A DNA stretch of 64,000 nt from Prorocentrum cordatum (Eukaryota): the NCBI GenBank assembly GCA_963575745.1, contig CAUYUJ010000103.1, positions 62,001-126,000 on the forward strand, in the 5' to 3' direction. A program made the position numbers and the translations under genes. The first letter of the stretch is position 1, and each line of letters opens with the position of its first letter. A model generated the notes under the pieces. It saw only the letters and a program-made list of their open reading frames with translations, was not told the DNA's origin and ran no database searches. Positions 3,770 through 36,299 of the stretch are shown here, piece after piece.

Positions 3770-4545
3770 CGGCTACGCGGAATGTTGCCGGCCTGACCGA
3801 CGAGAAGCTTTGCGCGCTCGGCCAGGCAATGCGTGCTTGGGGCATTGGTTTCTCTTTGCCTTCAGGAGACATGAACTTCGAAAGCAGAGTATTATGCGAG
3901 TTGTAGCGTTGTTTTGTCAGGCTTGGAGAACGCAGGCGACGAGACCAAATCTAAGTCAGTAGTGGGTTTCATCGCGGCACCTCGCGCGATTTCTCGCGCA
4001 TTTTTTTGTTTGTTTTTGGTTTGTTGGTTTTGATTGTTCCCCCCCCCAGTGCCCCGGCCGCCTCGCGTGCTTGAAAATCCGAGGGGCCAAAGGCAAGTGC
4101 GCGCTCTTCTCTGGCTACGCCCCGCTCGACCTCCGACAACTGCCCGAAATGTTACAAATTTGTCTTGAGCTGGAGAAGGTCGCAAATAGTGCACCTGTGA
4201 ACGGGCTCGAATTTAGCCGTGGGCATTTTCACGCGCGGCTTGGCCAGCAACGATGCAGTGAAGAGCGCGCGCTTGGACTGCGTGCTTTCGGATCCGAAGC
4301 AGCGCATGAAGTGGATTGCCCGAACCGCGATTTATTGGTAAAGTTCTGCGCAGCGCAGCAGCGCATCATCAGCAACGCGCTTCGCGCCGTTCCAGAAGAG
4401 CAACTGGTGACCTACATGGAGCCGGGCGCCCGGCCCAATGACGACACCCAGTCGAACGCATTCGCCTTTGCTCGATTTGTTGTTCCTTGCGCCGAGCGCG
4501 ACTGCCGACCGCGTGCTGTCTGTTGCGAGTGTGAAGGCCGCGACC
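3770..4545 (+). pseudogene. LINE-A ORF2 AP-endonuclease domain relic
   Basis: ATRNVAGL (xTWNVxGL), LCLQET, VVGFIAAP, SGYAP, GHFHARLG (GDFNARxG), NRDLLVKFC, VTY and LLDLLF, across frameshifts. Confidence 0.88.
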
Positions 4546-6500
4546 CCCCCTAAGTTTCGTTCAGTGCGTCGCCCGTGCGTCGCCCGTGCGCCGGCCCTGG
4601 TTTGCGTCTCTGTCCCGCATCCCGGCCTCCCAGAGTGCGGGGGCGACATGTGGCGCGACTTCGGAATCTCGCTGGCGGCTTGTAGGTTTCCGATGCCTGT
4701 GCGCCAGCGGCCACTTTGGCGGTCGCGTCGCACTCTAGTCCGACGGTCCACCAACGCGTTATGTTTCCCATTCGGCGCAAGAGGATTCGCTGGTGCGTAT
4801 TTTCGGGGGGCGCCAACCGTTGCCGAGGGCGAGGACGCCTCGCGTTGATTGGCGGCTGCGCGCGTCGCGCCACGGCGGGGGTGACGTCGCGTCGCGCGAC
4901 GCGGCGCCACTTCGCCACGCCGCGTCGCGCCCCGCGCCTCCATGTCGCGTCGCGCCAATCCTCCTGCCCCCCCTCTCTTCCTTCCTCTTCCCCTCGTCCA
5001 ACGCGCTGCGCGTTTTGTCTCGTTTGCGAAATGTGTGTTCAGTTATTTTGTCAGGCTGTCGCCCTGTCCCCCTCCATATTCACCCCCCGTTGTCCTTCCA
5101 CCCTCCCTGAACTTCCCTCTCGCCCTCCTAGCTCCCGCCGATCCCCGTCGATTGCCTTCCATCGCTCCCGCCGCCGCTGCGCCGCCCCCGCGCGCCCCTC
5201 CTCGCCCGTCCGTTCCCTTTTCCGCCCGCCCCCCCCTCGCCCCACCCCCCTCTTCCCCCCCGATGCGTCGGCGGGCGAGACGTCGCCAAATTGCTGCTGC
5301 GACGAACCGATGTTCAAATTCTGACGGTGCGCGCGCTTGAAATGGATTCTCCCGCGCGCGCTGCATCTCCATGTCGTCGATTGGTTTCTTCGCGTTCGTA
5401 GTTCTCGCGTACGCGTCGCGCTATTTCTGCGATTGTCGCGCGCGCCCCTCGATCGTTTCGCCCGGGGGGCGTGCAGTTCGCGCGCCGTCAGGTGTTCGCG
5501 GCGCCCTTCGAGCGATTCGCGCGCGACCTGCGCGCGACGCACGAACGACCCGAGCGACGCTCGTGCGACGCACGCGCTACGCGCGCGCGACGCGCCCCGA
5601 CCCGCGCGCGACGCATTCTTGCCGGCGCGCGACGCACGCGCGACGGACGCGCCACGCGCGCGAAGCAAGCGCGACACACGCGCGACGCACGCGCGACGCA
5701 CGCGCGACGCATGCGCGACGCAGTCGCGACTTTGCCCGCCCTTTGCATTTCTCCGAGCAGCAATGCGCAACGGCCGTTTGCTCGCCGTGCTTGCGCTGTT
5801 CACAAGTGGCGTCGGCTGCGTCCCCCTTTGCGCCAGGAAGGGCGGCGCTTGCCCCTGTTCCTTCCAATTACCTTCCTTGTCGTCCTTTTTCCTTCCTCAG
5901 TCCTCCTCCTTCGTTCTCCCTCCTGCCTCGCCCCCCTCCCTCCTCCTCCTTTCTCCCGGCCCCCCTCTGTCTGTTCCTCCCCCCTCCTACCTCGCCGCCC
6001 GGTGTCCCCCTTCAGGTTCTTTCTTCTCTTTCGCCCCCCCCTTCCGCGGCCGCGGCGCGTCGCCGCGAGCGGCGCCCCCGCCTTCCGCGAACGGCCCCGC
6101 CGCTGGCGGTGGAAGAGGAAGATTGCGTGGAAAAGAGGGGGGGGCAGGGGCGCGAGGGAGGTGGGCGCGGCGGCAAGGGCGGCCCGGCAGGGGAATTGGG
6201 GGGAAATGGGGGGCGACGGAGTGGGCGGGTGCTTCTTTAATGGTCATGTTGGTGATCATGGTCGCGGTCGTGTTCGTCGCCTTGGTCGCGCTGGTGGTGG
6301 TCGTGCTGCTGGTGGCGGCTGCGGGCTGGTGGTGGTCACGTCGGTGATCGTGCTGGTATCGGTCGTTGTGGTGGTCGCGTCAAGCGCTGTGGTCGTGGTG
6401 GTGGTGGCGGTGCATGGTGTCGGTCGTAATCGTCGCGGTGGATGCGGTTGCGGTCGCGTCCGTTTGCGGTGAATGGGGGCCGCCGCCGATGGCTTGCCAG
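4545..6500. repeat. GC-rich low-complexity insertion inside LINE-A (CGCGCGACGC-type arrays, pyrimidine tracts, (GTG/GTC)n)
   Basis: Separates the APE and RT relics and has no coding signal. Boundaries are approximate. Confidence 0.65.
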
Positions 6501-6529
6501 ATGATGCGCCCAGGCCTAGGCGATCTTGG

Positions 6530-8419
6530 ATCAGCGACCGAACCGCGCAGCTTATTCAAGAAGAATCGCGCGCCTGAGTCGACGGGGACGCCGAGGTCGA
6601 GAAAGGGGATGCACGAAGCCGCGCGGAAGGCAGCGCGGCAGGATGGGGCGAAGTGGCTGGGGGGGGCCCGCGGCCCCGGGGGCCCCGGGAGACATTCGGA
6701 ACATCTGGGGGCCGCGGCTATCTAGGCAGGACCAGCTGCGGAATTTGCAAGGAGCGCTCGCGTGCAGCGCAGACACGGCGGGCGCCATGGGAACATGACT
6801 CGAGAAGATACAATGGGGCGTGCGACCAACCGCTGCAATTGACGAGCCGGTTCTTGGAGACGCGCTGCCGGTCAGGCTGACCAATTTCACGCATTGCGAA
6901 GTCAAAGCTTGGTTGCGGCATATGCACGATGGCGAAGCTCCCGGCCCGGACGGCGCGCCGCCAGAATGTTGGAAGGCACTCGCGGACAGTTCCGAGGCCG
7001 CGGATCGTTGACCGTTGCTTGCAAGACAGGAGAGTGCCGCGGGAATGGCACAAAGCGAGGGTAATAATTTCACACGAGAAAGGAAGAACTTACGACTGCG
7101 CGAATTGCCGGCCAATCAGCTTGCTTGTTATTGGATGCGAAGCTTTCTGCATCATTACTGCGCCAGCGCCTGGTGCGTGCAGGGGCGGGGTCCAGGCTGA
7201 CGGGCTCTCAGTTCGGCTTCAGATCAAATCGCGGGACACAAGAAACTACGCTTGCACTCCGTAGGTGCATCGATCTGGAGCTGGGAACATCCAGGGGGGA
7301 TTTGTTGGCATTGGCCTTGGATAGGAAAAAGGCGTTTGACCCCGTGAACCTTTCAGCTCTGCCGCGACGCCTTCGGCGCTTCGGCTTGCCAGAGCACGCG
7401 GTGGAACTCATTGGCGCAATATGCGCAGATCGGCTTTTCGAGGTGCGAGATTGCGGAATGGCTTCGTCGTTGAGGCCGCAGTTGTCCGGCATATCACAAG
7501 GGTGCCATTTGTCACCGTTTTTGTTCTTCATGATCATGACAATCATAGTCGAAAAGCACTGCCGCGCAACTTTCCGAAGAGCACCGCAACTTATGGGGGC
7601 ATATGTCAATGTCAGTATTGCTGTGCGTGGGCGACGCTCTGATTTTGGGAAAGACCAAAGAGGGTGTAGAACAGCTATTTGCCTCCATATAATATGCTGG
7701 AATATGTTCTGATATGGAGTTGCGCCCTGACAACTTCCAACTACTCCAGGTCTGGCGCGCTCAGAATATTCAAGACGGACAAGGTGTGATCACGCAGACA
7801 CGGGAAGTTTTTTGTAAAACATCGGGTTTTGATTTCTGGGGCGGGGGGCGCGAGCAAAGAACTCTCCCTGCGTCTTGGCGCAGCCTGGGCTGATTATGAC
7901 AAGCTTTCTGTAATGTGGCGACATTCAGATTTCAGCCGCCGTCGGAAAATCGAGGTTTACAGGGCGGCGGTTCTTGGCGAGTTGACGTGCGGATTATCGG
8001 CGTTGTGGTTGAATGCCGCTGGCAGGAGACGTCGAGGCGGTTTTCAGTGCCGGTGCTTCCGCGCGATCTAGGGGATCGCGCCAGCTTATATTTCAAGAGT
8101 GAGAAACGCAGTTGTCTTGGACACGACCGGGCAATCCCTCTCATAGGGGACTGCAGCTCGACAGCAGCTCCTCTTGCTAGAAAGAGCCGCCAGGTCACCG
8201 GCAGGGATCCCGTTGACAGAGGTCACCTTCTGCCCTGGATTCTTCCGGCCAGCGTCAGACAGGTGCGTGAAGAAAGTTTGCAGGCCGCGCGCGGACTGGA
8301 CGTCCCAGGTGCTGCGCGTCGCTTGCGCAGCGGCAGGCGAAGTAGCCACTTTGACCCCTCTATTGGCCAGCGAAGCTTCTTGGCGGCACTTTGTCCGCAC
8401 AGCTAACGTGTCAACATAG
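6530..8419 (+). pseudogene. LINE-A ORF2 reverse transcriptase and C-terminal relic
   Basis: APGPDG, VPREWHKARV, NCRPISLL, QFGFRSNRGT, LALDRKKAFD, GISQGCHLSPFLF, LCVGDALILG (YxDD site, 7621-7650), RLGAAWADY, LTCGL and WRHFV, with multiple frameshifts. Confidence 0.93.
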
Positions 8420-9837: not shown

Positions 9838-9887
<50 letters not shown>

Positions 9888-10200
9888 GATGATGATGCTG
9901 ATGCTGATGAATATGCTGATGAGGATGATGATGGTGCTGATGCTGATGTTAATGCTGATGCTGCTGATGATGATGATGATGATGATGAGAATGATGATAA
10001 TGATGATGCCTATTAATGACGATGATGCTGATGACGATTAATATGATGATGCTGGTGACTGCTGCTGCTGATGGCGAATCTGATGATGAAGCATCTGATT
10101 GAATATGATGATGAATATGATGACGATGAATCTGATGACGATGCTGATGGTGGTGCTGCTGCTGGTGCGGTTGAGGAGGAGGAGGAGGAGGAGGAGGAGG
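8770..10200. repeat. Degenerate (GAT)n microsatellite ending in (GAG)n
   Basis: About 1.4 kb of GAT/GCT/GGT/GAC triplets. Explains the poly-M, poly-D and poly-I ORFs. Confidence 0.95.
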
Positions 10201-10239
10201 CACACCGTCACGTGTGGCACCTTTCGCCTTCACTTCTTG

Positions 10240-10640
10240 AGGAGCCCTCATGGACCTCATTTTGGTAGTCTTGGGGCTCGTTTTGCACCTTTTGGGTGCC
10301 GTTTTGGAGCCTCTCTGGGGCCTCTTTGGGGCCTTTCGGGCCTGCTGGGGGCCTCTTGGGGCGGAAGGCTCAAACTGTCGGTTCGTGTTCCCTTTTTTGG
10401 ACCCTTCCTGTGGCCGTCTTGGGGCCCTTTTGGGCTGTGTTCGGCGCCCTTTGGGCTGTCGAGCCCTCTTTGGGGCGTCTTGGGACCCTCTTAGTGCCTT
10501 CTTCTCGCGGGCAGTTTTGGGGTTCTCTTTGGGGAGGCCCTTTCTCCTGGGCCCCCCCCCCTTTGCGGCCCTTCGCCCCCTGGCGTTGCGCCGCCCCCCT
10601 CGGCCCGCCTCAGGCGCCGCCCCGGGGTCCCAGGAGTCCT
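10240..10640. repeat. GGCCTCTTGG-family 10-11 bp periodic repeat block
   Basis: The same core occurs at ~1150-1275, 13800-14060, 18230-18760, 19920-20130, 20890-21370, 45240-45900, 52360-52700 and 55760-57330. Confidence 0.8.
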
Positions 10641-13600
10641 CCTCGCCCCGGCTGGAGGACACCATGCTGCCAGCTACGTCACTGCGGCGACTTTCTCCAC
10701 GACGCGTCCTAAGTTGCCCAGGCCGCTCGCGCATACAGGCCCGCCCCTCCGCTGGCAGCGCTCTGACTCTCCCGAGCCGTTGGCTGCAGACGGGCGCAGG
10801 CGTCGTGGCTCCACTCCAGCGTGAGAGGCCGACGGGAGACCCCCTCGATCCGCAGCGCTGATCTCCCTTGCCTGTCTTAGCTCTGTTCACACACACACAC
10901 ACGGCGACTGTTAGTTGCCCGCCGCCCTATCCCCCGCACTCTCCGCTAAGCGTACACTGCGACCGTTAGTCGCTTCCAACCGTCTCCCTTACCCAGCCCG
11001 GCGATGCGACCGTGAGTCGCTGTCTCGCACGCGCCCCTCCCCCAGCCGATGCCACTCCTCGCGGCCGCCCCGGCCTCGTGCCTAATGCCGCCCCACGAGC
11101 GCACAGCGGGGGCGCTGGCCCTCCCCTGGCCCCTCAGCTCGCCCTCGCTCGGGCCACCTGCGACGCCGCGCCCCGCGGCGCCGGGTCGACCCCCCCTGCG
11201 CCTGCCCCCAGCGCCGCAGCGGGGCCCCTCAGCCCCTTCCGTCGTCTCTCGCTTCGCGACCACCGAGCCGGCTGGGGCATGGCTGCTTGCACAGCGCGCG
11301 CCGCCCCCGCTGGCTGCGCCGCGCGTCGCCGCGGCCGCCGCGGTCGGCCGCCGCGGTCGTTGCCGCTGCAGCTACCAGCGCTGGTGCCGCTGCCGCCGCC
11401 GGTTCCCCTCGGGTGACGACGGTGGTCGGGGTCGTCGCGGCCGGTGCGCGGCGGCACCGCTCTAGCGTGCGAGGTCGCAGGGGAACCCCCTCGGCCCGTC
11501 GCGCTCGGGCCAACGTTCTCGGTGAGTCCCTTCGCTTTCTGTGGTTAGGCTCCGCATTTCGCGGTCGCGCCTGGCCTGCGACGGCTTGCCGCCGGTTTCT
11601 CCGCCGCCCCAGCTTTGCGCATGAGGTCGCTGGGACCCCCCCCCGACCCTGGACGCAGGTGTGCGGGCCTTCCTTTCGTCGCGGCCACCCTGGTCGCGCC
11701 CGAGGTTCGCCTGCTAGCTTTTTTCTATTTCCAGGATGCCCCTGGGCCCCCGGGCCCGCGGCTCGCCTTGAGTCTGCTGCCTCTGCCCGCCCGGGGTTGA
11801 CGGTCACCTGGTCCTCCCCCGCGTCGCCTTCCCCAGGGCCTGGGGTCGGCTGTCGCCGACTCATTCGCAGGTGCGTGGCCTCCACTCGCCAATTCCCCGC
11901 ATCTGCCGCCTCTGGGCCGCTGTGTCGCTGCCATCCCCCTGTCCCCCCGCCCGCGGTGGCGCTGCCGTCGCTTCCGCGCCCCTCGCTTCGACCCTTGTCG
12001 GCGTTTGGCGATCTGGAGCCTACTCCGTTGAGCGCCTGCATGTCGTGGTTCGACGTTCTCATCGGTTGCGTCGCGGCCGTCTTCGAGTGCGTGGACTTTT
12101 TGAATTTCGCCGTTTTGGTGCTGCGCCTCGACCAGTGGTTCTTCCTAGTCCACTGCTTCTCCTGAGCCGCAGCGTAGCTCGCTCCTGCGTGCTCTTTCTT
12201 CGTTTCTTCCCCGTTTTTGCCTCGCGTTCCGCTTGCTTTCGTTCCTTCCCCGTGTCGCGGAATTTAGGCCGTTGCTGGTTAGCCGCATTTTTTGACGGCG
12301 CCTGGCACCCCTGCGCGCTCGCGAACAAAAAAGTATCCCCGCCAGGTGCTTGGCCCCTCGCCCGCCATCCCCGCGGCCTCCCCCGGGGCCGCCCTGGCCT
12401 CGCGCCCGGTGCCGCCCGGCGCGTGCCTCAGCTGGGGCTGTCGGCTCGCGCCTTGCCTCTCAGTGCGTCCTCGTCACTGGTTTAGCTTGTGGCTCTTCGC
12501 TCCCTGGCGCCGGGCCACCCCCCTTGCCCCTCGCCCAGTGCGGGCTGCTCGGGGCCCCCTCGGCGCTCTGCCCCGCCTCCGCCGCTGGGGTCGCAGATGC
12601 GTCAGAGGCGTGTCACTGCCGTGGCCTGCTTCCCCACGGCGCCCCGCACAGCGGCCTATGCTCCGCACGAAGGCGCCACCTGGGCTCCTCTTCTGCCGCG
12701 CGGTCGGCGCGGACCGTCGCCTTTCGGTTGTCCGCCCGCCCCCTGCTGCCCCTCCGTCTCGGCCTCTCCGCCCCCTGCGGCTCTTGGCTGGCGGCAATCC
12801 CTCGCCGGCCTGCGGCCGGCTGACCTCTCGGCCATCCCCCAACGAGCGGGTTGCCTCCCCGACGGCCCCCGAGCGGGATCCAGCATGCTGGCGGCTGGGC
12901 GTTTCCACCGCGCGCTCCGGTGCCTTCGGTCGCACGGATCGGTTCCTCCCCGGCGCGCGGGCGCCCGCCCGCGCCCCCCGCGTTGCGGCGCGCGGTCCCT
13001 ATACCAGTCCCCGACGGTGTCTGGCGATCCGGATTCTGGTCTGTTGAGCGCCTGCACGTGAGTTGGTCGACGCTTGGTGGCGCGTGTGACTCGACCGCCA
13101 ACTTGTGACGGAGCGACCGTTGGTCCTGTCGCCTGCTCCTCGTGGTGCGTCTACGAGCCTGTGGTCCCTGTCTTTCAGTGCGTTCGCGGTGTCGTTCAAC
13201 CAGATTTCCCCGCCATTTTGGCGATGCGCTCCGCCTGGCGGCTCCCCCCAGTCGGCGGCGCCCTCTTCTGACTGGCAGCGAGGGCCGCCTCCTGTTTGTT
13301 CCTCCCTCTGCTGTCCTCTCGCGACCTCCCTTACCTCCTGGTGCGCAATTCGCTCGTAGCCCACTTGCTTCGATCTTTGGACGGCGTCCGGCGTCTCCCG
13401 GTGCGCGCGCGATCAAAAAATCCCCACCAGCCTTTGGCACCTCAGTGGGCACGCTCTGCGTTACCTGGTACCGCAGTTTTGACTGACTTGATTAGGATGC
13501 TGATTTGTGATGCCCCCCGCGCCATTTTGGCCGCGTTGGGCCTTGTTCCGCCCTGAGCCGGGCGCCGCCCGCTTTGCTGTTCATCCTTTGCTTCGGCGCG

Positions 13601-14574
13601 GCCCGCGTTACCTTGCACTGCGTTCGATTCGTCTTCGCGCGCCCGCATACCGGAAAAGTCTCCCCACCAACCTGTCCAGAAACGACGCCCATGAGAGTTG
13701 ACGGTGGGAGGGAGGGAGACGCGCATATTCAAACAGCGAGGGAGCCGGCCGGTCTAAGAGACGGCGCGTAGTCAAATTTCGAGGGAATGCTGATCCTTTT
13801 GGGGAAACTCCATGGCCATCTCGAGCCGTCTTGGAACGATTTGGGTTTTTGTGCCACCTTGGGAGCCATCTTGCGCCAGCTTGTGTTATGTTGAGTCACC
13901 TTGGAGGTCATCTTGGTCTCTCTGAGGGTTCTCGGGGGCCCTTTTTTTTCCGGGGCCTCTTGGAACCCCCTTGGGGCCTCTTGGGGCGTTCGTGGGACCG
14001 TTTTGGGGGCTTCTTTAGGGGTCCTGGAGGGCCCTTAGGGGCCATCTTGAAGGCGGTCAGTCACAAGAGGGGGGGCCCGTTCGTCCCCCCATCGGGGGCC
14101 ACGATCTTTGTGAGGGGTGTTAAAAAATTGCCCTCTCGCTTGCCGAAAAAGGAGCCTCCGACATCTCCCGAAACCGCACAAAAAGCCTCAGGGAGGGGAG
14201 GGGGAAGGTACCATTCCCCGAAGGGAAGAAGGGTTGTGGAAGAGGAAAGAGACCCTGTGGGATCATGCCCCACAATTGCAGACCACGACTACGACTATTA
14301 CTTCCATGATTAGCCTTGCGACGACGATCGCTATGTTACTAGTGATAGATAGTGACAGTGCAGGTCTAGCACTGTTGGTACGACGTTTCTCTACATTCGG
14401 GACGACGATTATTGCGAGGCGTTGGGGGCAGAAGTTGAAGCAGGACCCTCGAGGCATGTTCAAACGCCTTTCGCTCTTGTTTGCAAGGCTTTCCTTGCAT
14501 GCGTGTCTGCATGAATTCGTTCGTGCGCGACCGAAGGGATTTCCGGTCTCATCAGCGTGTCGGCAAACACGTGC

Positions 14575-14720: not shown

Positions 14721-14787
14721 CATCTCCCCCTGTTTTAGCTTTGTGATCTCAAATTGACAAGCAGTCATCCGCGCAATAAGCAGTCAG

Positions 14788-25439: not shown

Positions 25440-25524
25440 GCTTGCTGAGAATTGGCGTTCGACGGCATTTGCTGAGTTACCGCGTCTCAGTGCCCTGGAG
25501 TTTCTGGGGGGTGTCTGGCGCGTG

Positions 25525-25569
<45 letters not shown>

Positions 25570-26020: not shown

Positions 26021-26056
26021 GCCACCCCTGCCATGTAGCTCTTGGAGAGAGGCTGC

Positions 26057-26092
<36 letters not shown>

Positions 26093-26239
26093 TGCGTTGC
26101 GATGGGTTTGGGTGCTGTTTTTGCCGCCGGAGGATCTCGCGCAATGCCCCCCGCCTGGAGGGCGACAGATGTCTCGGCGCGTAACCGGCGCGAGGCCGAG
26201 TGACTCTTTGACGGCCATGCTTGGCAAGGCCGCTGTCGC

Positions 26240-27050
26240 GCAATCCTTTGCCCCAGCTTTTTCCAGCGCCTCTCTGGTTCGTTGCCCCCAGTGTTTCGCC
26301 GCTGGACTCTCAGACGAATGGGCAGGCCTCTGGGCGGCGTGAGACAGGGCCCCACATGTTGGGGCGCGTGGAAAAACTTTGGGGACCAGCTTTCACGCCA
26401 TAGATTGTCTCTGGTGGTGACAGTTGAAACCGGATTCCCTCGCAGCGGGGTAGCGGCCATTGGCAAATTCCATGTGGTTCATTCCCGATGTGCCACCGAC
26501 GGGAACTGCGGGTGCTCGCTCTGGATTCGCGCTGACATCTCAGCTCCTCCCTCTTCTCGCGTGGGGCCCCCGTGTGTTGCCGAGTGTTGCGCGCCGCTCC
26601 GTGGCCGCTCGCGGTGGCCGCAGCGGTCGGCAGTTTCGTCCGGGCGCGGTCGTCGGACGCGCCCCGCGCGGCAAGGCATCGCCTGCTCAGGCCAGTCAAT
26701 GGCGGGAGCGTTGTTTCGACATCGCGGCCAGGGTTCGTACTCCAGGGGCTGAGCTCATCAATCTCCTGGATGCCAATGCGCGTCTGGGGCCTGCGCTTTC
26801 CCGTCGCGTTGGTGGCGTCGGGGCGGCGGTGGAGAATTTCCCGGGGCAGTGCTTCCATCGCTGCCTGGCCAAGCTGGATCTCTGGGCGCCGTCTAAGTTT
26901 CTGGAGTCTGGTCAGCCTTCTGCGAGCGCGTGGTTTCCTCCCGGGCGGCTTCAGAGTTTGGGGCATAGGCTTGATTGCGCCGTTTGCTTCAGTGGGGTGG
27001 AGGTGCTTCAGCAACAGGTGACTGATCAGGTAGATATGTCCATCGATGTG
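26240..27050 (+). pseudogene. LINE-B AP-endonuclease relic
   Basis: VTVET, GNCGCSLW, LLDANARLG, ENFPG and HRLDC (RLDY). Confidence 0.75.
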
Positions 27051-28199
27051 GCGGCCGTTTGCCCGCCGGCGCCCCGGCGAGAATTCCCGCGTCGTCTACT
27101 CGTCTTCACCCCGGTCAGGCTCTGGAGGTCAAGTGTGGTCCCGACAAGTTCTCGCGCCCCGAAGCTCGCTCGCTGTTTCGGTCGTCATTGCGTTCTGGCC
27201 CTCGTGCGCCATTCGACGCCCCCTCGCTTGGCCATCGTCGCGGGCCACCTGAGTGAGTTTCTGGAGATCTGTTCCCCGCCCAGGGCTACCTTGAGAGGTC
27301 GCGCGCCGCGGCAGTCTTGGGCTTCAGACGTCGCGCTCGAGGCCATGGGCGATCGCGCAGTGTTCCTCCGCAGCTTCCGCGCGGTCGTCATGCTTTTGAA
27401 GCGCTTGCGGCTGTTCATCCCATTTCGTGCCTGGGCCTCGCCTCTGCGTAGTGCGCGGCGCTGTCGCCGCCTCGGCTGCGCGCGCGTCGCTGAGAGACGC
27501 ATGCGACGCCCCAATCAGGGATGGCTTCGCCACTTCCGATCGACCCATAGGGTGGCGCGCGCGATCGTTCGACCACTCGGGGGCGCCATGCGCAAGGCTT
27601 GTCTACTAAGGCTGCGTCGCGCTAAGGGCAGGTCTTGGCTCCCCTAGGGTATTCTTCAGGAGCGTTTGCAGTTCTTGGGGGGGGGGGGGGGGGGGGGGGG
27701 GGGGATTTCGCCGCCTTCCACGGCTACTTCACGGGCGTCTGGGTGTCTACGTGCTGAACGCGTGTGGCTACACTAGCTCGTGCTCGGATTGCCAGGGTCT
27801 CGGTCGACGTTGGCGTTCGCGCTTGCGCGTGGGCTACTTGGCCACCGGCTTGCGTGTCATGGGCATGCGCTGCTGCAGTGCAGTTGTTAAGAATTGAACC
27901 GAGCTTGATGCCGGGCAGCACGTGGCTCGCGCGGCGGCGGAGGCATCCAGTGCTTGGTCTTGTCGTGACTTTCGGATTGCTTTTGCCAAGTTACGTGCGA
28001 TGAGCGCCTGTTCTCGCCGCGAGCTCCATTCTCTGCCTCTCCATTGCTTCGCAGGCAGGACGGCCAGCCACTTCGTCAATTCATTCGGGTTGCAGACTCC
28101 TGCGTCGAGCACTTTGGCAAGGGCGAGGCGGCGCCAGTGGCGCCTTTTGCCGATTTGGATTTTTCCTTATTGTGAGCATGTTTCGGAGCTGCGGACGTT

Positions 28200-29350
28200 C
28201 CCATGACTGGTGATCAGATTTCTTCCTTGGGCGATCTGGGAACTCTCGTGCAGGAAAGCCAACGCCTCGGCTCCTGAGCCCGATGGTTTCTCCGGAAGGA
28301 TCACGCCCTCCTCTGCCGTCGAGCTGGCCCGGGACATGTCTTCACGTCGCTGAGCCCAGCCAATGGGGGAGGGGGTATTGGTCTCTCTTCAAGTCTAGGG
28401 ACGTTTCCAATCTTGCGTGTTATAGATCCATGTTTGGGCCGTCCCACTCTGGAAAACGACATCGCAGCATCATCCGTTGGGGGCCATGCCGGCCGTAGAG
28501 GTGGTCGCGGGGGATCGTCAGCACGGTGGCCTCCCAGGGCGAGGCACCGAGTTTGGGGCGCTCGAGTTGCGCCTATTTCAGCAGTTGGCCGAGGCCCGCA
28601 AGGCGTCAGTGTTGCTCGTATTTGTGGGCGTGGTGCAAGCGTACAACAAATGCGTGCAATAGCTGGTCATGTACGCAGCATGTGGTGACCTTTCGCTGGC
28701 TTCACTTCTGAGGGCGAGCCGGCCACCGCCAGAGGCCATTACATATTTGCAAGATTATATCAAGCAGCATCCCCCGCTCCTCGTCTCCAGTGGCGTATCC
28801 CCCCCTCGATGTGCTCAGACCGCCGACGCGTGCAATGGGTCATGGTGCTCTGCCCCGAACGCTTCCAAGGATGCTTTTCCTATGCTGGGCTCGGGGCCTG
28901 GCCGACCGCTTGGGGGCGTTGTTTTCATTTTCGTCATGTCGTCTGCGATGCAGTCGGTTCTTTCGCGTGTTATCCCTTCGGCATCGTGTTGCGCGCCCCG
29001 ACGGCTGCCCATGCTTCTATAGCTAAGTATACTGGAGAGGGTGCTCCTACGCGCGCGACGCACTCGCTCGAGGGCGTTTTCTTTGACGTCGCTGTTTTTT
29101 TCTGCACGGCGCAGAGCTGGGCAGCTACTTACCATTGCTCCGATACTAGCAGCAGAAGTCGCAGATTCCTTCGCGGCGAGGGGTTTCTGCGTCAATGCCA
29201 GGGTTGATAAGCCAGCGTATATTTTCCATTTTCAGGGCCCTGGAGCCACGCGTGCTAAGCGGCTCCTGTGGCCCGGCATAGGCGGCACTTTTCAAGCCCC
29301 CACGGAGAAGGCGGGCCCCTCCAAAATACATGCAGTTATGAGTGCACCCA
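28200..29350 (+). pseudogene. LINE-B reverse transcriptase relic
   Basis: PSQWG..LFKSRDVSNLACYRSM, GKRH, QHGGLPGRGTEF, LLVFVGVVQAY (FVDxxxAF) and GSGPGRPLGGVVF (GxxPGxPLGDxxF). Confidence 0.82.
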
Positions 29351-30095
29351 CCTTGGTACGACGCAAGATGATCATTGTTCGATGGGCCCTGAGCTTGCCC
29401 ACAGATCGCAGACTAGCGCCATTGCGCGGTCGTGTCTCCGGCGACGCATGCTCTTCCAGCGCTGCATGCATCCTGATGCAGCTATTGTTATCTTCGACTC
29501 TTTGGTCTGTTCTTGTAAGTTTCTCCCGAGCGAGTGCGTGGGGGTATCTTTCTGCTGCGCAGTTCCGGGGCCTAGAGGACGACGTGGCGCGCTGCTATCG
29601 GGCTATCGCCAATCAGCCTCGAAGGGACCCATCGGCGCTCTACCGTCAGGCTATCTTGGGAAAGGTCCTCAAGTCTCCACTTGGCGCCCCACTTAGCGCT
29701 CAACGGTTTCGTCTCTACGGGCGGCTTCTGACCCATGGACCCCGCGCATACTTGCGTTGGCTACGACGTGCAGGCTCGAGTGTCACAGGTCTTGGGGGCG
29801 CCAGATCATTGAGGATTTGGAGTGGGTTTGGACGTTTCATGCTCAATGCCAACTCCTCCCCAACCCCTCCGGGGACCTTCTCGCCCGGGGAATGCCAGTT
29901 CAACGATCTGCCCCAGCTTGGAAGCACGTCGTCAGTGACTCACTGGCATCGCACCCCAAACATGTTCGCCGTCTTGCGCTGACGCGTGCTGCGGAGCATG
30001 CTATGTTTGAAGTCTTGCGAGATGCTGGAGCGCCGCGTGCAATCGCTGGCCCCGAGCACCCTCTCCGTCGGGCCGAGGCTGAGGAGTGTCAAGTT

Positions 30096-30270
30096 TGGAA
30101 GTGTCTCTGGTGTGGAGTTCTTTTTGATCGTTCTCGCAAGGTTCGTTCGCATGTTTTTCGGACGCATCATCCTCGAGTTTCGTTCATTCGTTGTTTCCTC
30201 GGTGCGAGTTTGGAGTGTGCCACGTGTGGCACGGCGTTTGCACTTCGTTCGGCGCCGGCGTCGCACGCGT
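30096..30270 (+). pseudogene. Two C2H2-type zinc fingers of LINE-B ORF2
   Basis: WKCLWCGVLFDRSRKVRSHVFRTH and LECATCGTAFALRSAPASH. Confidence 0.75.
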
Positions 30271-30669
30271 CGTCTGACTCTCCCCAGCGCGCCCTTGGTC
30301 TTTTGTGGTCGGGCAGACAGTGCTCTCCAGATCAGGCGGATGCGCTGAGCGAGGCAGAGTCGCACCGTCATGCGCAGTAGCTCCGTTCTAGCCAAGGTAG
30401 GTGGCGGGTGGAGAGTCCAGCGCCACTGCATACTGCAGGTCTTTCCGAGGAGTTGGCAGGCTTACTTCGAATGACCAGGCCAGGGAAATCATGCGCGAGT
30501 CGGGTTAGTCTAGGGGCATCCTCGGTGTCCAACTTCCTCGATGCTTTCAAGACTCGTGTTCACGTCGAAACCTTTCCTATGTTGGACCCCCCCCCAATAT
30601 CCCAATCGCGTCGGCGATTGCACTGGAGTGGCCTCTGAGGCCATGCCAATTCGCATGCACCGGCCAACC

Positions 30670-31400
30670 GTCTTCGCCTTGCACTTGCGCAGTGGCCAGA
30701 GGAGGCGTGTGAACTTGCAATGGCAGCTCGAGAATCAGATTGCTCCCCAGCGTGGAGGTGTTCATGCTGAGTCTTGACATGGCCATCGGTCCGACTAGAG
30801 GCGATCTCGCGAGGGAAGGGGCTATCTTGGAATGGGCCGGACACATCTGAGCTCATCGCGTCATCAGCACGGGCGGGGGGGGCCCTTGCGAGACCTGGTC
30901 AGCGGCCAGGTGGCAGGGGGGGCCCCCCTCCCCTCAGGTCTATTGAGTATGTTTGGGGATTCCCGCAGTGCGCGCCTCGACACTCTGAGCAGCTGAGGGT
31001 AGGTAGCGTGCCTTTGCGCGCTCTGGTTCGCCTCGTGGCGGAGCACCTCCGTGCGGGGGCAGGGGCCTGGCTCGAGCGCCCTGCCCCCGCTCTGTGGGCG
31101 CCCAGGGCCCCGGCGCCCTTTCGGCGGCCGCCTGTCCGGCGGTCGCCTCGGCCTCGCTCGCGGCCGCCTGCGCGTTTGATCAATGCGAGCATCGGGCCCC
31201 CGTTTCTGACCCCGCTGGCTTTAGGAGGGCCCCCGCTTGTATAGTCAGCATTCGCACGCCTTCGTTGTGCAATGAGCGTCGAAACGCTCCCGGCAAGGTT
31301 GAATTTTCCGCGGCCATGGCGCCCGCCGTCGTTTTTTTCCACGGCGCCCAAAAATGTACATCCTCCAGGTATGTACCTGGCTTTTCCAAGGGCATCAGTG
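30670..31400 (+). pseudogene. C5 cytosine DNA methyltransferase-like domain relic at the LINE-B C-terminus
   Basis: Motif I-like LHLRSG (30679-30696), then LDMA..GDL. Motif IV GGPCETWS (catalytic PC at 30884-30889), then PLRS..WG. Motif VI-like WLERP (31068-31082), motif VIII-like FDQCEH, motif X-like FSTAPKNVHPPGM. Frameshifts fall in G/C runs. Confidence 0.75.
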
Positions 31401-32379
31401 CCAGTGCATTGCAGGCGCGCGCAGAGTCGGCCAGCCAGGCTGACGCTATATTCTTTCGGGGGGGGCCGCCCTCGTTGAGGGCGAAGTTCGGGATTTCTAT
31501 GTCTCGCGGGAGGGCCCCCCTCCTCCGCCCCCCCCGACCCCTGCCTCCAGCTTGACTTTGCGGGGGCCGCGGGTAGACGCCGAAGACGACGGCGCGCGGG
31601 CCCAGAGCCGGGCAGGGTCATGGAGTCTGAGTCCGAGGCCGAGGCGGAGGAGGAGGATTCACAAGCCGAAGGCCCTCCTGCGAGCCCCCAGCGCGAAGGG
31701 GGGCCTCCCTGGGCGTCGAAGCTTCCGATGGGCAGGCTTTCCTTGAATGTGATGTGGGGGATCCTGCCGCTTGGGCGCTCAGTTCTGCTTCCGCTCCTGC
31801 GTCGCCCCCCCCGCCCCCGCGCCCCCGCCGCCCCCCCTTCGCTCGCCGACGCCCGGCGCGAGCGGATCGCCGATCATCGAGAGGGGGCCAGGCGCCGTCG
31901 CGCGGCCCGCCGCGCCGCCGAGGCGGCGGCCCGCGCCGTGCTTGCGTCCGTCTCAGGTTTGTTCGACCGCCCTGTTGAAGCTCGCCCGACGGGCCCATTT
32001 GTCGATCCGGCGCAGGCGGCCTGGCGCGAGGCATTTTTTTTTGATGCTGTGATCCTGTGATTTTGTTTCTAATCCGTCTGCTGTTACACTGTGCGTCTAG
32101 TTGGTGTACGAGTGCCAGTTGAGTTGAGGATGGCGGACTGCCGTTCCCATCGTTCGACGACGACGACCCCGCCCCCCCTCTCGCGGCGGGGCCTCGCGGC
32201 GCACGAGCGGCGGGGCGCCGCCTGAAATGCAGCGCGAATGCTGTTGAACCAAGGGGCAATATTCGCAGAGAGGTTGGTTGCAGAGGCCCTCTGGCCGCGC
32301 CAGATTTCAAGGTGTGGGAGCGGGGCATGTGCGAGACAACGTGCCCAGTATCTGGCAGACATTTCCCACCTGGCCCCGC

Positions 32380-33240
32380 AAAGTTGAGAACGCCGCAACG
32401 ACGTGCGACCCTCTCGTGGACTGCGGCGAGGCGTAGGCTCTCGATCGGATGATCGCCGCGGCCTGCGTGACAATCACGTTTAACAACGACTTCAAAAAGT
32501 GTGTGAACGCGAGGAAGGAGAAGGCTCAACGTGTCGGTCGGCTCGCTTAGCCATGACATGATTTTTGCGTGGTTCTGGATTGGAGTAGGGTTGAAGTGGC
32601 AGGCGGCTACATCTTAGACCTCGCCCGACTCAATGCTGCGAGCGCGAATGGCTTCGCTGCGAGTGAATCGAGGACTGGGATTGCGCGCCCTTGTGTGTAG
32701 CGCGCCTTTTCCCGAGTCGCCCATCCTTGACTTTCTGTTCAACGCGCATATAGAACGCCGCCCTAACTTCGAACGTGACGCGGGGGGCACTGCAGGATGG
32801 AGTGGACCTGGGCGATCCAAGCAAGACCGACGATTGGTTTTACGACAGGCGCGCGCAACTCCTGGAGAGGCATCGCCTGCGCGCGGCGCGCATGCGAATA
32901 GTTGAGGGCCGATGGGCCCGCTCAGCTATGTCCGCCAGCAAAAGGACCCGCGGCGGTTTGATTCAGCAAGGCTCGCGCAAATCTAGGGGCCGCCCGCGTG
33001 GGGGCCCCGAGCGCTTGAAGACGGCAAATGCGACGGGGCCGGCTGGCATGCTGGGCGCTCGCGAGTTCCGTGAAGAATCTGAAATGATTGGCAAGCGTTT
33101 GAAATCGCAATGCAGCGGGGGGCGCGGGCCAAGTTGCTCGCCCCCCAACGGTGCACTGGTAGAAATGAGGAAACGTGCCATTTCGCGCGCGTGGGCAGCG
33201 TTGGAGAAAAGCCGCGGGCGCCTCGCGCAAAGGTACACCC
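32380..33240 (+). pseudogene. Possible gag-like relic of an LTR retroelement
   Basis: ALDRMIAAACVTI...KEKAQRVGRL and LDFLFNAHIERR...LGDPSKTDDWFYDRRAQLLERHRLR resemble, from memory, dinoflagellate copia-type gag. No LTR or pol is seen. Confidence 0.3.
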
Positions 33241-33569
33241 CCTGAAATCTCGCCCCAGAGGCCGGACTGGCCCTGGTGATGATGCGCCCAGCAGTCCGCC
33301 GCGGTTCCCTGGTGGGGCGAAGAATCACCCCGCGTGCACGAGACAGGGCGCCGCGGGAGACAGTTCCCTGGAGCCGCCGCGAGGGCCGCCCGGCAACGAC
33401 AGGGGGCGCCCGCCGCCGAAATTGGCTCGCGGCCGCCAGCGGCCGACCTCCAGCGGCTCCGATCGAGGGCGTTCAGGTATGCTTGCGCGAACGTGTTTCA
33501 TCTCCCCCTCCGCCCCTCTCCTCCTTCCGGGGGTGGCGAGATGGCGCGGGAAGGGGTGGGTGGGTCTAC

Positions 33570-33775
33570 GCGGGAGGGCGACCTTCGGCTCGGCGCCCCG
33601 CGAGTTCGCTTCCCCGCGCAGGAGGGCGACCTTCTGCCGAGCGCCCTGCGGGGCCGTTTTTCTGCGCGGGAGGCCGGCCTTCTGTTCGGTGCCCCGCGAG
33701 GTCGCTTCCCTGCGCGGGGGGGCGACCTTCTGCCGAGCACCCTGCGAGGTCGCTCCCCCATGCAGCAGGGGGGCC
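33570..33775. repeat. ~49-bp tandem repeat, about 4 diverged copies
   Basis: GGAGGGCGACCTTC-like cores at ~33573, 33621, 33669 and 33718. Confidence 0.75.
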
Positions 33776-34149
33776 TCCTGGCTCAGGCTGCTGCGGCGCG
33801 TCGCGAGGCCCGCGCCGCGCTGGGCCCGCAGTGGCGCCTGGCGTTTTCGGGTCGCTGTGACCTTGCTTCGTTTCTTGGAGAGTTGGCGCCTGGGCCGAAG
33901 GTGTTGCGATGCGCGAGCTTGTGCGCCGCGTGGTGGGTCACCGCGGCACGTCGTGGGGCGTCGCAGTTTGCCGGTCGCAGCCCCATCTGGATGCGGAGAT
34001 AGCGCCTTCGCCGCGTCTCCGCCTTCGGGTGCAGATGTCAGCCCGCCGATGGCGTCGAAAACGGCCGGTTCAGCCACTCTCGCCGGCACTGGGCTTTCTG
34101 ACGGCTCAGCTCGACCGTGGCGTTTGAGAGATGGGCGGGGTTTCTGGAT

Positions 34150-36299
34150 ATCCAGTGGCAGATGATCAAGGTTTTGTTGGGGGATTTCTAGTTCCCCCAG
34201 GCTGCTTTTGCTGACCTAGCCAAGCAGACATCATGTACTTCTGCTCAGCTGAAAGCCATGCATGAATGGGCGTTCTTGCAGGCTATCCAGGGCCGCGATG
34301 TGGAAGAGCATGATTTGAAGACGGGAGCTCATGGGGGTTAGTGAAGTCATGGAGGAGGAGTTTGCGGAGGTGGGCAGGATGGCGAAGGAGACAGTTGAAG
34401 GGGCGGCGACTTTGCGGGACAGTGGCATTTTCTTTCGGCAAGTGTGGCGTTGCGTTGTGCCCGCCCAGTGGTCCCCTGGCTTGAAAGGGGGCCCTGATGG
34501 GGGCGACGTTGCGCTGAACTGTGGGCCCCGTCGTCTTGAAGTGCCCCCCTGCAGCGGGAGTCCCCAGCATCCAGGTTAAGGCGTGCAGTGGCAGCAGGGA
34601 GATGGTTCCAAACTGTTTTGCTGCGCTCGTCAGGCTTCGATCTCTGGCTCGAAGGCAAAGACAGAGGGCCTTTTTCTGTGCCCGAACCCAGGGGCGGGCC
34701 AGATCTCCAGCTCCGCCCGCCTCCCACATACCTAGGAGGCTCTCCCACCGCATGGGGAACTACCCTTGGGCCCAGCAAAGTCGGACCGAGGGGGCTCGAT
34801 TGTGCTATCTGCGTCTTGAAGAGCGGATCCATCCCGGGGCGCGTTGTGGAATCTCCCATGGCAGCTGACGGTCCCACGGCAGGGGGTGTTCACTGCCCAG
34901 CCGATGCTGAGGGCCTTGAGGGGATAGGAGTTGACCAGCTCGCAGGCTGCCTGCTAGTTCGTGCATCGGGGGGATCCTTCCCATAGGGTGAGTGCGGGGG
35001 CAGCTCGGGTGACTTTGTGCCCAACTGTAAGAACGTGGGCTCCTCGGCATCTGAGAGTTCTAGTGGATCGCAGTCGTCGGATAGCTGATCTGGTATTTGC
35101 TCAGGTGACACAGCGTCGCTGTTTTTGTTCCCCCTCCTGGTTGGGTTTGCTGATGAGTTCTGCCGCTTCCCTCGCCCGCTTCCTTTCAGTGCGTGGAACG
35201 CCCGTTCTCTCATTGCATCTATCGCGCCCTCCTGCCTCAGGGCAAGTTTGCATTTTCGACTTGCTATGACATTTGTTAAGTGTCACCGGGTTGCGTGCTT
35301 CTAGGAGACAGTTCTGTGTCGAGAGCTAAACTCGATTCTCTCTGATGATCTCAGCTAAGGTACACTCTTTGGGAGTTTCGTCGGCGATCGGGCTGCGGGG
35401 GGGGGTCGCCGCGAATCTCTGCGATGAGCTCTTTGGTCGGTTCCGGGAAACGTTCCCCGTTGAGGCGGAGACATGCAGGACGGTTTTCGTGAGGTGTTCT
35501 GGGGAAGCAGGTGGCTCTGCTGCAGTGCATGTCTATGCGCCGAACACGCGTGACCTGCGGCAGGTCGTCGCTGTTCTTCCTCCTGCTTCCCGCCGCATGG
35601 TCGCGGTGGCTGGCGACTGGGACTTCGTCCCAGTGGGGCGTTTTTGTGTGTGTGTGTGTGGGGGGGGGGGATGGGGAATTTGGACGTGGGCATTGGCTGC
35701 AGCGCGATGCTTCTCCAGAGATTTGCAACTCGTTCTCTGAGCTGCGCCGGCCAGGCCTGACGCGCGGGGATATTGTGCGTGCTTCCTTCTACCAGAGGGT
35801 TCTCGAGATTGGATCGGATTTGTTCGCGACTCTTTGCTGGCGTAATTCTTGGGATGGAAGTCGCCGTCAGTGACGCGTGCGCCCCTGCCTATCTGAGCCT
35901 ATCTGGGGGCCTCGGGCTTCGCCCCGGCGGCGGCGGCCCCTGCCCTGCCCGGGCCCAGGGGCCACTTCGCCATCTCCGCGCGGGAAAATGTGCGCCCGAC
36001 GCATCGGAATATTGCCTTTGAACTAATGGCTGAGGTCGCGTTCCGTTCGGACTCTTCGGGCGGAGGCGCAGTCTTGCGCGGTGGCAGATGAGTTTCGCGC
36101 GTCTCTCCGACGCAGGCATGCGCCGAACAGTGTTGGGATGTTATGTTTCGCCTGTGTGGCATCTCTGTGTCCATGCTCTTTTCTGCTGCTTTGTTCTCTT
36201 TGCTTCCCTTGTTATGATAGCTGCGCGCGCCCGTCGCCGCTTTGCAGAACCAGCGGCTTGAAGCGGAGCTTGGGGAGTTTGGGCGCGGCAGAGGTGAGG

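Follow-up and report, generated by a model that had tools for sequence, protein, structure and literature searches.

A-to-G substitutions in excess on the coding strand of dead LINE retrotransposons from Prorocentrum cordatum

To our knowledge, almost all organisms studied lose GC by mutation, and the known mutational genome defences, among them RIP (repeat-induced point mutation) and the APOBEC enzymes, use the deamination of cytosine. The opposite direction is noted here in 64,000 nucleotides of DNA from the dinoflagellate Prorocentrum cordatum (assembly GCA_963575745.1, contig CAUYUJ010000103.1, positions 62,001 to 126,000 of the forward strand). This whole stretch is termed the window and is numbered from its first letter. 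Two dead long interspersed nuclear elements (LINEs), LINE-A (3754-8401, + strand) and LINE-B (25671-31082, + strand), are analyzed for A>G changes on the coding strand; an excess is confirmed for LINE-A and supported for LINE-B, and the observation as a whole is partly confirmed. An original prediction, made from the letters of the window alone, had proposed that dead retroelements decay here by A>G/T>C transitions in DNA, possibly tied to the marking of repeats by 5-hydroxymethyluracil (5hmU or hmU). The analysis draws on the window, public proteins, metagenome contigs and contigs of sequencing runs, with ancestral states taken from relatives in other genomes.

The described systems to which this pattern may be compared include: (i) RIP of fungi, which is duplication-dependent, acts on pre-meiotic DNA, writes C>T (G>A) mostly at CpA and lowers GC, (ii) APOBEC3, which acts on C (G>A on the plus strand, lowering GC) and leaves a strand- and context-specific deamination signature in retro-derived copies from the RNA/cDNA stage, (iii) hyper-editing by ADARs, an adenosine-to-inosine (A-to-I) RNA editing whose footprints are fixed in retrocopies and RNA viruses of animals, and (iv) the TadA/ADAT deaminases, whose context is UACG in the anticodon loop. 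ADARs are regarded as metazoan; an A before the edited A is tolerated, as is U, while a 5' G is disfavored. Early adenine base editors prefer YAC (Y, pyrimidine; R, purine).

A directed A>G route has so far been seen directly only in a 2026 preprint on the chlorarachniophyte Bigelowiella natans (Mettrop et al., bioRxiv 10.64898/2026.01.13.699255). According to that preprint, two integrated viral regions mutate ~1000x faster than the rest of the genome in mutation-accumulation lines. Of 231 mutations, 230 are A>G or T>C; every one of these is at TpA, and both strands are affected. The TpA-depleted genes of B. natans are enriched for reverse transcriptase (RT) and endonuclease-RT domains, and an ADAT/TadA-type (ADAT2-like) deaminase is proposed (same source). 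In dinoflagellates, two papers describe 5hmU as enriched on transposons, including LINEs, and linked to silencing (PMC11572971, PMC11071213), and its inhibition derepresses them (PMC11572971); Marinov et al. recover no TA/TC preference of hmU in B. minutum (PMC11071213). This system concerns the same organism group as the window but an epigenetic mark, and a search for terms in the main texts of the two papers gave no mutational consequence, 'mutation' occurring 0 times in PMC11071213 and twice in PMC11572971. For Symbiodinium, nuclear RNA editing has been reported that is clustered and comprises all 12 types, and ADAR-like candidates have been named (PMC5357065). Literature searches surfaced no paper dealing with mutation spectra of dinoflagellates or with transposons hypermutated by A>G in this group.

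Substitution spectrum and sequence context of LINE-A

LINE-A is, by its sequence, a non-long terminal repeat (non-LTR) retrotransposon with an APE endonuclease followed by an RT on one strand. Relatives of the element number 454, and a family profile of 974 positions was built from 74 full-length relatives. Substitutions were counted without selection of sites: every profile column with a consensus frequency of at least 0.6 among the 74 relatives was used, a single-base change was inferred, and the sums were divided by the possible non-synonymous changes of each type. The columns counted include 215 that are the same, 105 that differ and 17 that require multiple steps. On the + strand, the rates are 21/120 (17.6%) for A>G, 8/144 (5.5%) for T>C, 15/196 (7.7%) for G>A and 4/127 (3.1%) for C>T.

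A DNA control was provided by 80 metagenome loci (L001-L080, GC 35-60%) that encode relatives and were taken through the identical pipeline. The pooled control rates are 2.2% (A>G), 0.9% (T>C), 5.7% (G>A) and 3.6% (C>T); in the same order, the 28 intact loci give 2.3%, 0.6%, 5.0% and 2.7%, and the 52 broken loci 2.1%, 1.1%, 6.1% and 4.1%. The broken relatives, thus, decay by G>A/C>T, and the direction in LINE-A is opposite to the usual one, as the original prediction had held. Compared to this control, A>G in LINE-A is raised 8-fold (21 versus 2.6 expected, Poisson P 9e-13) and T>C 6-fold (8 versus 1.3 expected, Poisson P 7e-5), whereas G>A is at 1.4-fold (15 versus 11.1 expected, P 0.15) and C>T at 0.9-fold (4 versus 4.5 expected, P 0.67). 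The A>G rate of the window is the highest among 77 family members (z ~8), the best of the 76 relatives with at least 120 columns reaching 8.4% (L029). Taken together, AT>GC transitions run at 11.0% in the window versus a maximum of 4.7% in the 76 loci (z 9), with a correlation (r) with GC of about -0.04. The same picture is seen when LINE-A is restricted to pieces of at least 35 bits. At the protein level, 74 intact relatives compared to the same consensus yield 244 A>G, 89 T>C, 559 G>A and 158 C>T changes, and the A>G share of the window is reached by 2 of the 74. The excess in LINE-A lies in A>G and T>C, the two classes named in the original prediction, and neither hand-picking nor the genetic code, constraint on the protein or GC content accounts for it. 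The worry that came with the original prediction, that its sites had been chosen by hand, is removed since the excess persists in the all-column count and against the 80-locus control.

Fungal RIP was rejected as a candidate, as LINE-A does not differ from the control in G>A and C>T and its excess has the opposite direction. The resemblance to RIP is in a directional transition hypermutation that inactivates mobile elements with a dinucleotide preference; the differences are that the direction is A>G and that the most repeated DNA of the window, a satellite, is unbiased. APOBEC3 is similar in leaving strand- and context-specific signatures in retro-derived copies but differs in its target base, G>A in LINE-A being at control level. 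GC-biased gene conversion and a plain GC-rich equilibrium were likewise set aside: transversions from W to S (W, A or T; S, G or C) are not raised (6.7/310 versus 15.8/408 for S>W), which argues against gene conversion, strand bias is present, and the tandem arrays of the window are symmetric.

The residue changes are radical. Tyr is replaced by Cys in 6 of 8 conserved Tyr columns and never by His, and Lys by Glu in 4 of 12 Lys columns and never by Arg, while all 9 conserved Gln residues are kept. In the 74 intact relatives, by contrast, Tyr>Cys accounts for 6 of 444 cells and Lys>Arg is common. As the changes are mostly radical, with conservative replacements missing, a selection filter is excluded.

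The A>G changes depend on the neighboring bases. By 5' base, the counts are 9/16 after T, 9/36 after C, 3/42.5 after G and 0/25 after A, that is, 18/52 after a pyrimidine versus 3/67.5 after a purine (P 2e-5); the 21 changes are, thus, 9 at TpA, 9 at CpA and 3 at GpA. By 3' base, they are 11/27.5 before C, 6/32.5 before A, 2/21.5 before T and 2/38 before G. At first and second codon positions, the trinucleotides TAC (5/6), CAC (4/5), YAC as a whole (9/11) and CAA (5/10) are hit, with CAG (0/16) and AAN (0/25) spared. The preference is also found in a test that is free of residue identity, as first-codon-position As are changed at 11/30 after a pyrimidine versus 0/26.5 after a purine (P 4e-4). 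In the relatives, the lean is reversed (1.5-2.4% after Y versus 2.9-3.2% after R). TpA is, therefore, a preferred site in LINE-A, in agreement with the original prediction, whereas the other target that it named, TpC on the opposite strand (sense GpA), is cold and CpA is warm instead.

The changes at TpA are one-stranded, with A>G at 9/16 versus T>C at 0/19 on the sense strand (P 1.6e-4). T>C at TpR is 2/67, and no preference for TpA is seen among the eight T>C sites; four of them follow G, which is the complement of an ApC preference. The excess of purine over pyrimidine transitions was dropped as proof of strand bias, as the protein-level comparison finds an equal ratio of A>G to T>C in intact relatives (244:89); the case for strand bias, thus, rests on the absolute excess, on TpA and on the LINE-B paralogues described below. 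The original prediction had named strictly sense-strand A>G, as from RNA editing before retroposition, as an outcome that would count against it, and the pattern found is largely of this kind, in LINE-A as in the net change of LINE-B. By that reasoning, the sense-strand A>G bias at pyrimidine-A points away from an hmU process at the DNA level.

The favored explanation, to which we give about an even chance of being correct, is an element-directed, strand-coordinated hypermutation of LINE-A and LINE-B of the adenine-deamination type, with an RNA stage slightly preferred. The two elements would be dead copies of two non-LTR families in which ordinary decay was joined by a burst of A-to-G changes on the coding (+) strand. 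The changes are preferentially at an A with a pyrimidine on its 5' side and C or A on its 3' side (hot, TAC, CAC and CAA; cold, AAN, GAN and CAG), and a sequence-selective deaminase acting on a single-stranded form of the element would convert adenine to hypoxanthine/inosine, which is read as G. The substrate is most likely the LINE RNA or an RNA:cDNA intermediate prior to integration, such that each copy would be 'born edited'; a displaced DNA strand of an integrated, targeted element is an alternative substrate that is nearly as probable. Editing at the RNA stage would explain the sense-strand placement, the differences between copies, the destruction of catalytic residues in one go and the absence of the pattern from tandem arrays that are not retroposed. 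What the counts show is the excess, with its direction, strand bias and context, and its lack in the arrays and the relatives; the deamination chemistry, the stage and any role in defence are inferred.

An RNA origin is made plausible by a relict spliced leader upstream of LINE-A and by the reports of nuclear RNA editing in Symbiodinium. The leader core, a motif that we take to be the dinoflagellate sequence, is matched exactly (15/15) at 2438-2452 of the + strand, within a relict leader followed by truncated leader copies (GCTTAAG GCTCAAG GCTCAAG) at 2431-2473. Relict spliced leaders are marks of mRNA retroposition, and the one at 2431-2473 supports the presence of RNA-derived (retroposed) DNA upstream of LINE-A as well as the dinoflagellate source that the original prediction took for granted. 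Weak tblastx similarity at 3102-3221 and 3539-3661 to the DNA just upstream of the open reading frame (ORF) 2 match in two of the metagenome loci (L028 and L050) suggests that LINE-A may include an ORF1 and bear the leader at its own 5' end. If so, LINE transcripts would be trans-spliced and retroposed repeatedly.

As side observations, the three truncated leader copies after the relict leader (2431-2473, with 2617 onward) lie ~1.3 kb upstream of the ORF2 start of LINE-A, and metagenome locus L022 has two spliced-leader cores (6327 and 6342) downstream of its LINE match.

The broken state of LINE-A is apparent from its alignment. The element is collinear with its closest protein, a 950-aa APE+RT protein (P0001, with Exo_endo_phos and RVT_1 domains) over residues 9-940, and the two are ~56% identical in the RT ORF. 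The family profile maps LINE-A as eight collinear pieces in three frames on the + strand (3854-3991, 4047-4481, 6479-6604, 6679-7002, 7004-7156, 7134-7556, 7561-7797 and 7829-8401), which cover 768 of the 974 columns and have six in-frame stops in total. The APE part (3754-4481) is frame-shifted and carries an in-frame stop; profile positions 34-79 and 87-231 map to 3854-3991 and 4047-4481, and P0001 residues 9-201 to 3854-4469. A GC-rich, low-complexity interruption of 2 kb (4482-6478), which includes an 11-bp CGCGCGACGCA array at 5520-5730, takes the place of profile positions 232-324. The RT and C-terminal part (6479-8401) follows in six pieces and three frames (profile positions 325-970). 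A Pfam scan of the 118 ORFs of 50 aa or more that surround the cited sites on the + strand gave as its only matches RVT_1 at 7068-7709 (E 8e-14) in this part and a weak RNase_H at 25476-26339 (E 0.0039). The YADD box of LINE-A reads CVGD at 7624-7635, in an alignment (LLCVGDALIL versus LLYADDTLL) that is unambiguous.

LINE-B, the reality of the bases and the tandem arrays

LINE-B is also a non-LTR (LINE) retrotransposon as judged from alignment, its RNase H, APE, RT and C-terminal parts being collinear with long relatives. It is broken, and its own Pfam support is limited to the weak RNase_H match. The RNase H part (25671-26000, + strand), in which the HVKGH motif reads RVEGH, is aligned with residues 272-372 of P0028 (25692-25997) and lies within the match to residues 1223-1638 of P0063 (25671-26957). 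The APE part with an adjoining conserved stretch (26294-27668) is recognized by tblastn (26294-27455) to relatives with Exo_endo_phos, and the ORF at 26454-27644 has 98 relatives at E<=1e-3. The RT part (28020-29262) is degenerate and without its own Pfam match but is aligned by tblastn to P0035, P0071, P0073 and P0076 (28486-28974), P0099 (to 29262) and P0018 (28020-28247), and the C-terminal conserved part (30734-31082) to P0037, P0048 and P0085; all of these parts are on the + strand.

For LINE-B, tblastn alignments were stacked with at least five relatives per column and a consensus of at least 0.6. This gives 77 unchanged, 28 changed and 6 multi-step columns, with A>G at 5/31, T>C at 1/49, G>A at 1/61 and C>T at 0/54. 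A second comparison uses contigs of sequencing run X1, which may be the assembly's own sample, aligned to 22300-38400 at a likeness of at least 80%; LINE-A is outside this range. The 309 of 348 contigs that are below 95% alike are paralogues. At 264 differing places, the window has G and the contig A at 60, A and G at 24, C and T at 44, and T and C at 45. The G/A classes are asymmetric (P 1e-4) and the C/T classes symmetric, which leaves LINE-B with a net excess over its paralogues of 36 (A>G) and -1 (T>C). Among the 40 of these places that are listed, those with at least two contigs, all differing, are 8 for G/A, 4 for C/T, 3 for A/G and 3 for T/C. At 25942 and 26928 (A>G) and 26896 (C>A), the paralogous contigs agree with the consensus of relatives; at 25942, where the window has G, A is found in two X1 contigs and one contig of run X3. 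C follows at 8 of the 12 listed places with G in the window and A in the contig, versus a background of 0.353 (P 0.027).

The same contigs bear on the proposal that the pattern is an artefact, either of systematic errors in base calling or assembly where bases are modified (hmU and others) or of hand-picking, misalignment or mis-polarization. Six X1 records that represent the same locus have 0 differences and 0 gaps compared to the window over 1341 bp (0 differences also for the one over 31068-31371) and bear the letter of the window at 26132, 26146, 29798, 29800, 32106 and 31078; all six are G sites, the first five where paralogues read A and the last one cited in the original prediction. An error at a modified T in the palindromic TpA should, moreover, strike both strands, yet T>C is absent from TpA in LINE-A; hand-picking is excluded by the all-column count and its control, and the alignment of the YADD box leaves no ambiguity. 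Points on the other side are that no sequencing platform is recorded for the assembly or for X1, that the contig comparison covers 22300-38400 (0.16 of the sampled words of LINE-A occur in X1) and that the consensus comes from distant relatives. An artefact is, on balance, highly improbable.

Contig depth is very high in two places, which is noted separately. It is ~150 in X1 at 22300-22836 (in the piece 22300-23373) and 874, 134 and 1651 in runs X1, X2 and X3 at 31429-31965, a segment flanked by poly-C loose ends; the high-depth pieces are high-copy or low-complexity DNA common to the three organisms of one study. Beyond the low-complexity 31429-31965, the X2 and X3 contigs give next to no cover of 22300-38400. 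The domain order of LINE-B is a further side observation: in its family (P0009, P0015, P0019, P0028 and P0063; window 25671-27455), one protein carries both domains, with RNase H upstream of the APE endonuclease. This order is unusual, as LINE clades are otherwise known with RNase H after RT.

All 14 substitution sites on which the original prediction was based have the residues that it described, 13 as A>G and one (3778) as T>C on the + strand. Its assumed ancestors in LINE-A match the family consensus at five of six sites (Y at 7107 with a frequency of 0.96, at 7423 with 0.65, at 7625 with 0.95 and at 7989 with 0.99, and D at 7631 with 1.0); the sixth, 3778, is upstream of the profile-aligned part, where RNVAGL fits the WNVxGL of relatives by eye only. 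In LINE-B, the ancestor at 28628 and 28916 is D in 7 of 7 aligned relatives, while 25947, 26977 and 31078 are covered by fewer than five relatives and are outside the ancestral-state check. A third proposed element, 'LINE-C' (34900-36000, + strand), is unverified: RT or endonuclease similarity is not detected in it by Pfam (no family at E<=10), among 757 candidate homologues (0 scored), with the LINE-A family profile or by tblastn with the LINE-B family proteins. No contig aligns over 34114-35724, and the stop cited near 35301 in this stretch is a TAG at 35302-35304.

The tandem arrays of the window serve as in-situ controls. The (GTACAA)n satellite forms two arrays detected by TRF (16319-18059 and 18807-19906, spanning 16319-19906). 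The variants in which the original prediction saw the same bias (GTGCAA, 23; GCACAA, 12; and GTACGA, 7 of 486 units) do exist, but the commonest variant is a transversion that the prediction did not name, GTACAC (74). The A:T>G:C excess claimed for dead retroelements and satellite alike stands for LINE-A and has support in LINE-B but does not extend to the satellite, nor does it involve both strands equally. In array 1 (287 units), A3>G (26) and T2>C (24) are about equal on the two strands of TpA, versus 8 for A5>G and 13 for A6>G. Array 2 has its A3>G (GTGCAA) units in clusters, with 16 adjacent pairs versus 4.3 expected, which indicates that they are not independent events and that variants spread by amplification.

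Other arrays lack the LINE-A pattern. Compared to their own unit, 12 microsatellite-type arrays have A>G at 7.3%, T>C at 7.7%, G>A at 6.9% and C>T at 3.4%, and 19 longer-period arrays 5.7%, 5.1%, 5.3% and 5.1%, respectively. Singletons in a four-copy segment of 590 bp comprise 9 A>G, 15 T>C, 11 G>A and 7 C>T. In 20 arrays (with the satellite and the (CGA)n blocks left out), no strand or context effect is found for A>G at YpA (14/228), T>C at TpR (25/395), ApC (7/130) or GpT (16/291), and AT>GC transitions are at 86/1386 versus 135/2664 for GC>AT. The (CGA)n arrays at 57.8-63.4 kb are coding-like (Asp/Glu-rich) and were, for this test, excluded, though they are kept in the microsatellite-type count.

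These arrays help to weigh a reading in which integrated foreign or repeated DNA undergoes targeted A:T>G:C hypermutation at the DNA level on either strand, a 'reverse RIP' that may be guided by 5hmU and akin to the process in B. natans. Such targeting would account for A>G and T>C both being above control in LINE-A, for TpA being the hottest 5' context and for the TAC motif of satellite array 1 being hit on both strands, and it has precedents in the TpA mutations of the B. natans viral regions and the 5hmU enrichment on dinoflagellate transposons. It does not fit the restriction of TpA changes to the sense-strand A in LINE-A, the one-stranded net change of LINE-B, the share of A>G at TpA (9 of 21, with CpA also hit at 9/36) or the lack of a TpA or TpR preference in T>C. 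The highly repeated satellite and the 20 other arrays are, moreover, without AT>GC bias, and a 5hmU guide is at odds with the lack of TA/TC preference reported for B. minutum. DNA-level targeting is, therefore, regarded as doubtful.

Composition of the window and comparison to described systems

The GC content of the window is 60.06% (38,437 of 64,000 bases), CpG is not depleted (observed/expected 1.03), and TpA is strongly depleted (0.59). These values bear on a reading without targeting, in which the ordinary neutral regime of the genome leans A:T>G:C in TpA and ApC/GpT, constrained sites decay after the death of the element, and the one-directional gene array adds a transcription-linked asymmetry. 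Transcription-associated A>G asymmetry occurs in mammals. This reading would explain why constrained first and second positions are changed beside third positions that look ordinary and were already free, and it is in keeping with the depletion of TpA and ApC/GpT and the raised GpC across the whole window. At second codon positions, LINE-A has a GC of 0.501 (z 2.0), which comes close to the highest value among 76 relatives and is the one notable codon-position value. The microsatellite-type arrays, in which all AT>GC changes are at 15.4% versus 9.5% for GC>AT, predict ~62% GC, near the observed 60%. The arrays of the window, however, have no context or strand effect (6.1% for A>G at YpA versus 6.3% for T>C at TpR), and those of longer period are near-symmetric per site. 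The AT>GC excess of LINE-A (~9.5% above control versus ~1% for GC>AT) is too skewed for an equilibrium at 60% GC, and the window-wide asymmetry of A-centred trinucleotides differs in profile, with AAA, CAA and AAC most depleted and TAC little. An untargeted regime, which also leaves the strand bias unexplained, is an unlikely explanation.

Several points weigh against the favored explanation of sense-strand adenine deamination. T>C is also above control, which deamination of sense-strand A leaves unexplained; this part of the excess is probably a separate and weaker AT-to-GC lean of a 60% GC genome. A deaminase that is blind to codon position should hit third positions too, yet the effect is not clear there and falls short of significance (z 0.84-0.95 against relatives): the G fraction in Y_[C/A] is 0.732 versus 0.572 elsewhere, a value that does not stand out from those of 79 relatives (z 0.84), and Y_C (0.78) is hardly above R_C (0.73). 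The consensus is built from relatives in other genomes that are at most ~57% identical, the sample is small (21 A>G sites and 11 YAC opportunities), and the overall A/T and G/C skews of LINE-A are no outliers. LINE-B has a weak preference for a 5' pyrimidine (10 of 17 sites), individual sites are known for 40 of the 264 differing places, and the lineage of change in the comparison of window and contigs is unproven. All recognizable features of the window are on the + strand; thus, the sense strand of the elements is inseparable from the strand of the gene array. Throughout the window, an intact host-like gene with a 2OG-FeII_Oxy_5 domain included, TpA (rho 0.38-0.68) and ApC/GpT are depleted and GpC is in excess, such that a genome-wide, context-dependent regime may contribute. 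The complete sparing of A after A in LINE-A is, finally, unlike the preference of ADARs.

In other respects, the pattern resembles ADAR hyper-editing, with sense-strand A>G clusters in each retro-derived copy, a 5' G disfavored and many sites hit, including catalytic residues. The A>G strand bias is strong, though T>C is also above control and the strands of element and array are confounded. Set beside the U/T-A-C-like context of TadA/ADAT-type deaminases, YAC and CAA are hit and CAG is spared at first and second codon positions, with little difference between Y_C and R_C at third positions.

The comparison to B. natans gives a likeness in that the excess is nearly confined to A>G and T>C, contrary to the common GC>AT bias (in LINE-A, G>A is at 1.4-fold and C>T at 0.9-fold), that TpA is preferred, that the targets are foreign or mobile sequences rather than ordinary DNA and that both hosts are marine SAR protists. 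Among the differences, the B. natans mutations are seen arising in DNA, while the dinoflagellate case is a fossil pattern in two LINE copies. B. natans has both TpA>TpG and TpA>CpA, reflecting both strands, compared to one strand in LINE-A and an asymmetry of only the G/A class in LINE-B. B. natans mutations are at TpA only, whereas LINE-A is also hit at CpA, has a 3' C/A preference and has none of its eight T>C changes at TpA. Unlike the B. natans pattern, CpA+TpG is not enriched in the window (rho 1.0-1.2).

As a broader and tentative proposal, dinoflagellates may restrict retrotransposons with a sequence-selective adenine deaminase that writes A>G at pyrimidine-A on single-stranded sense nucleic acid. 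This enzyme would be the adenine counterpart of APOBEC3 and related to the TpA hypermutation of Bigelowiella, with a deaminase defence shared by SAR protists and contributing to GC-rich, TpA-poor genomes. If correct, A>G killing of retroelements would be a second chemical route to mutational genome defence, the phenomenon would be widened across SAR protists, and the nucleic-acid biology of dinoflagellates (RNA editing, mRNA retroposition and hmU-marked transposons) would have a testable link to genome composition. Divergence-based estimates of repeat 'age' in such genomes would, in turn, be inflated by hypermutation. Dinoflagellate assemblies that already exist allow a direct test of the claim.

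Other features of the window

Just upstream of the satellite, an intact 335-aa ORF at 14758-15762 (+ strand) encodes a 2OG-FeII_Oxy_5 domain (E 2e-14) and is the sole host-like gene recognized; this is the one Pfam match among 223 further ORFs of at least 110 aa on both strands. Within the window, LINE-A, LINE-B and 'LINE-C' share no DNA similarity, and only the arrays are repeated. GpC is highest in LINE-A (1.32-1.48).

Outside the A-rich arrays, the + strand has a strong skew of T over A (e.g., 497 A and 1083 T at 10150-14757), with G and C about equal. The A-centred trinucleotides that are most depleted compared to their complements across the window are AAA, CAA, AAC and AAG. The YAC/GTR trinucleotide asymmetry was considered as a test but is positive nearly everywhere and about 0 in the RT part of LINE-A; it is confounded by the window-wide skew of T over A and was left unused.

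The region at 57700-64000 is composed of about four tandem units of ~1.8 kb, each with long degenerate (CGA)n tracts that are Asp/Glu-coding-like and the 590-bp unique part (83-86% identical). A poly-T run of 190 bases is found at 61637-61826. One 65-bp repeat family occurs in two arrays, at 21826-22256 (+) and 46463-46790 (-), which are inverted, 24 kb apart and of 77-83% identity.

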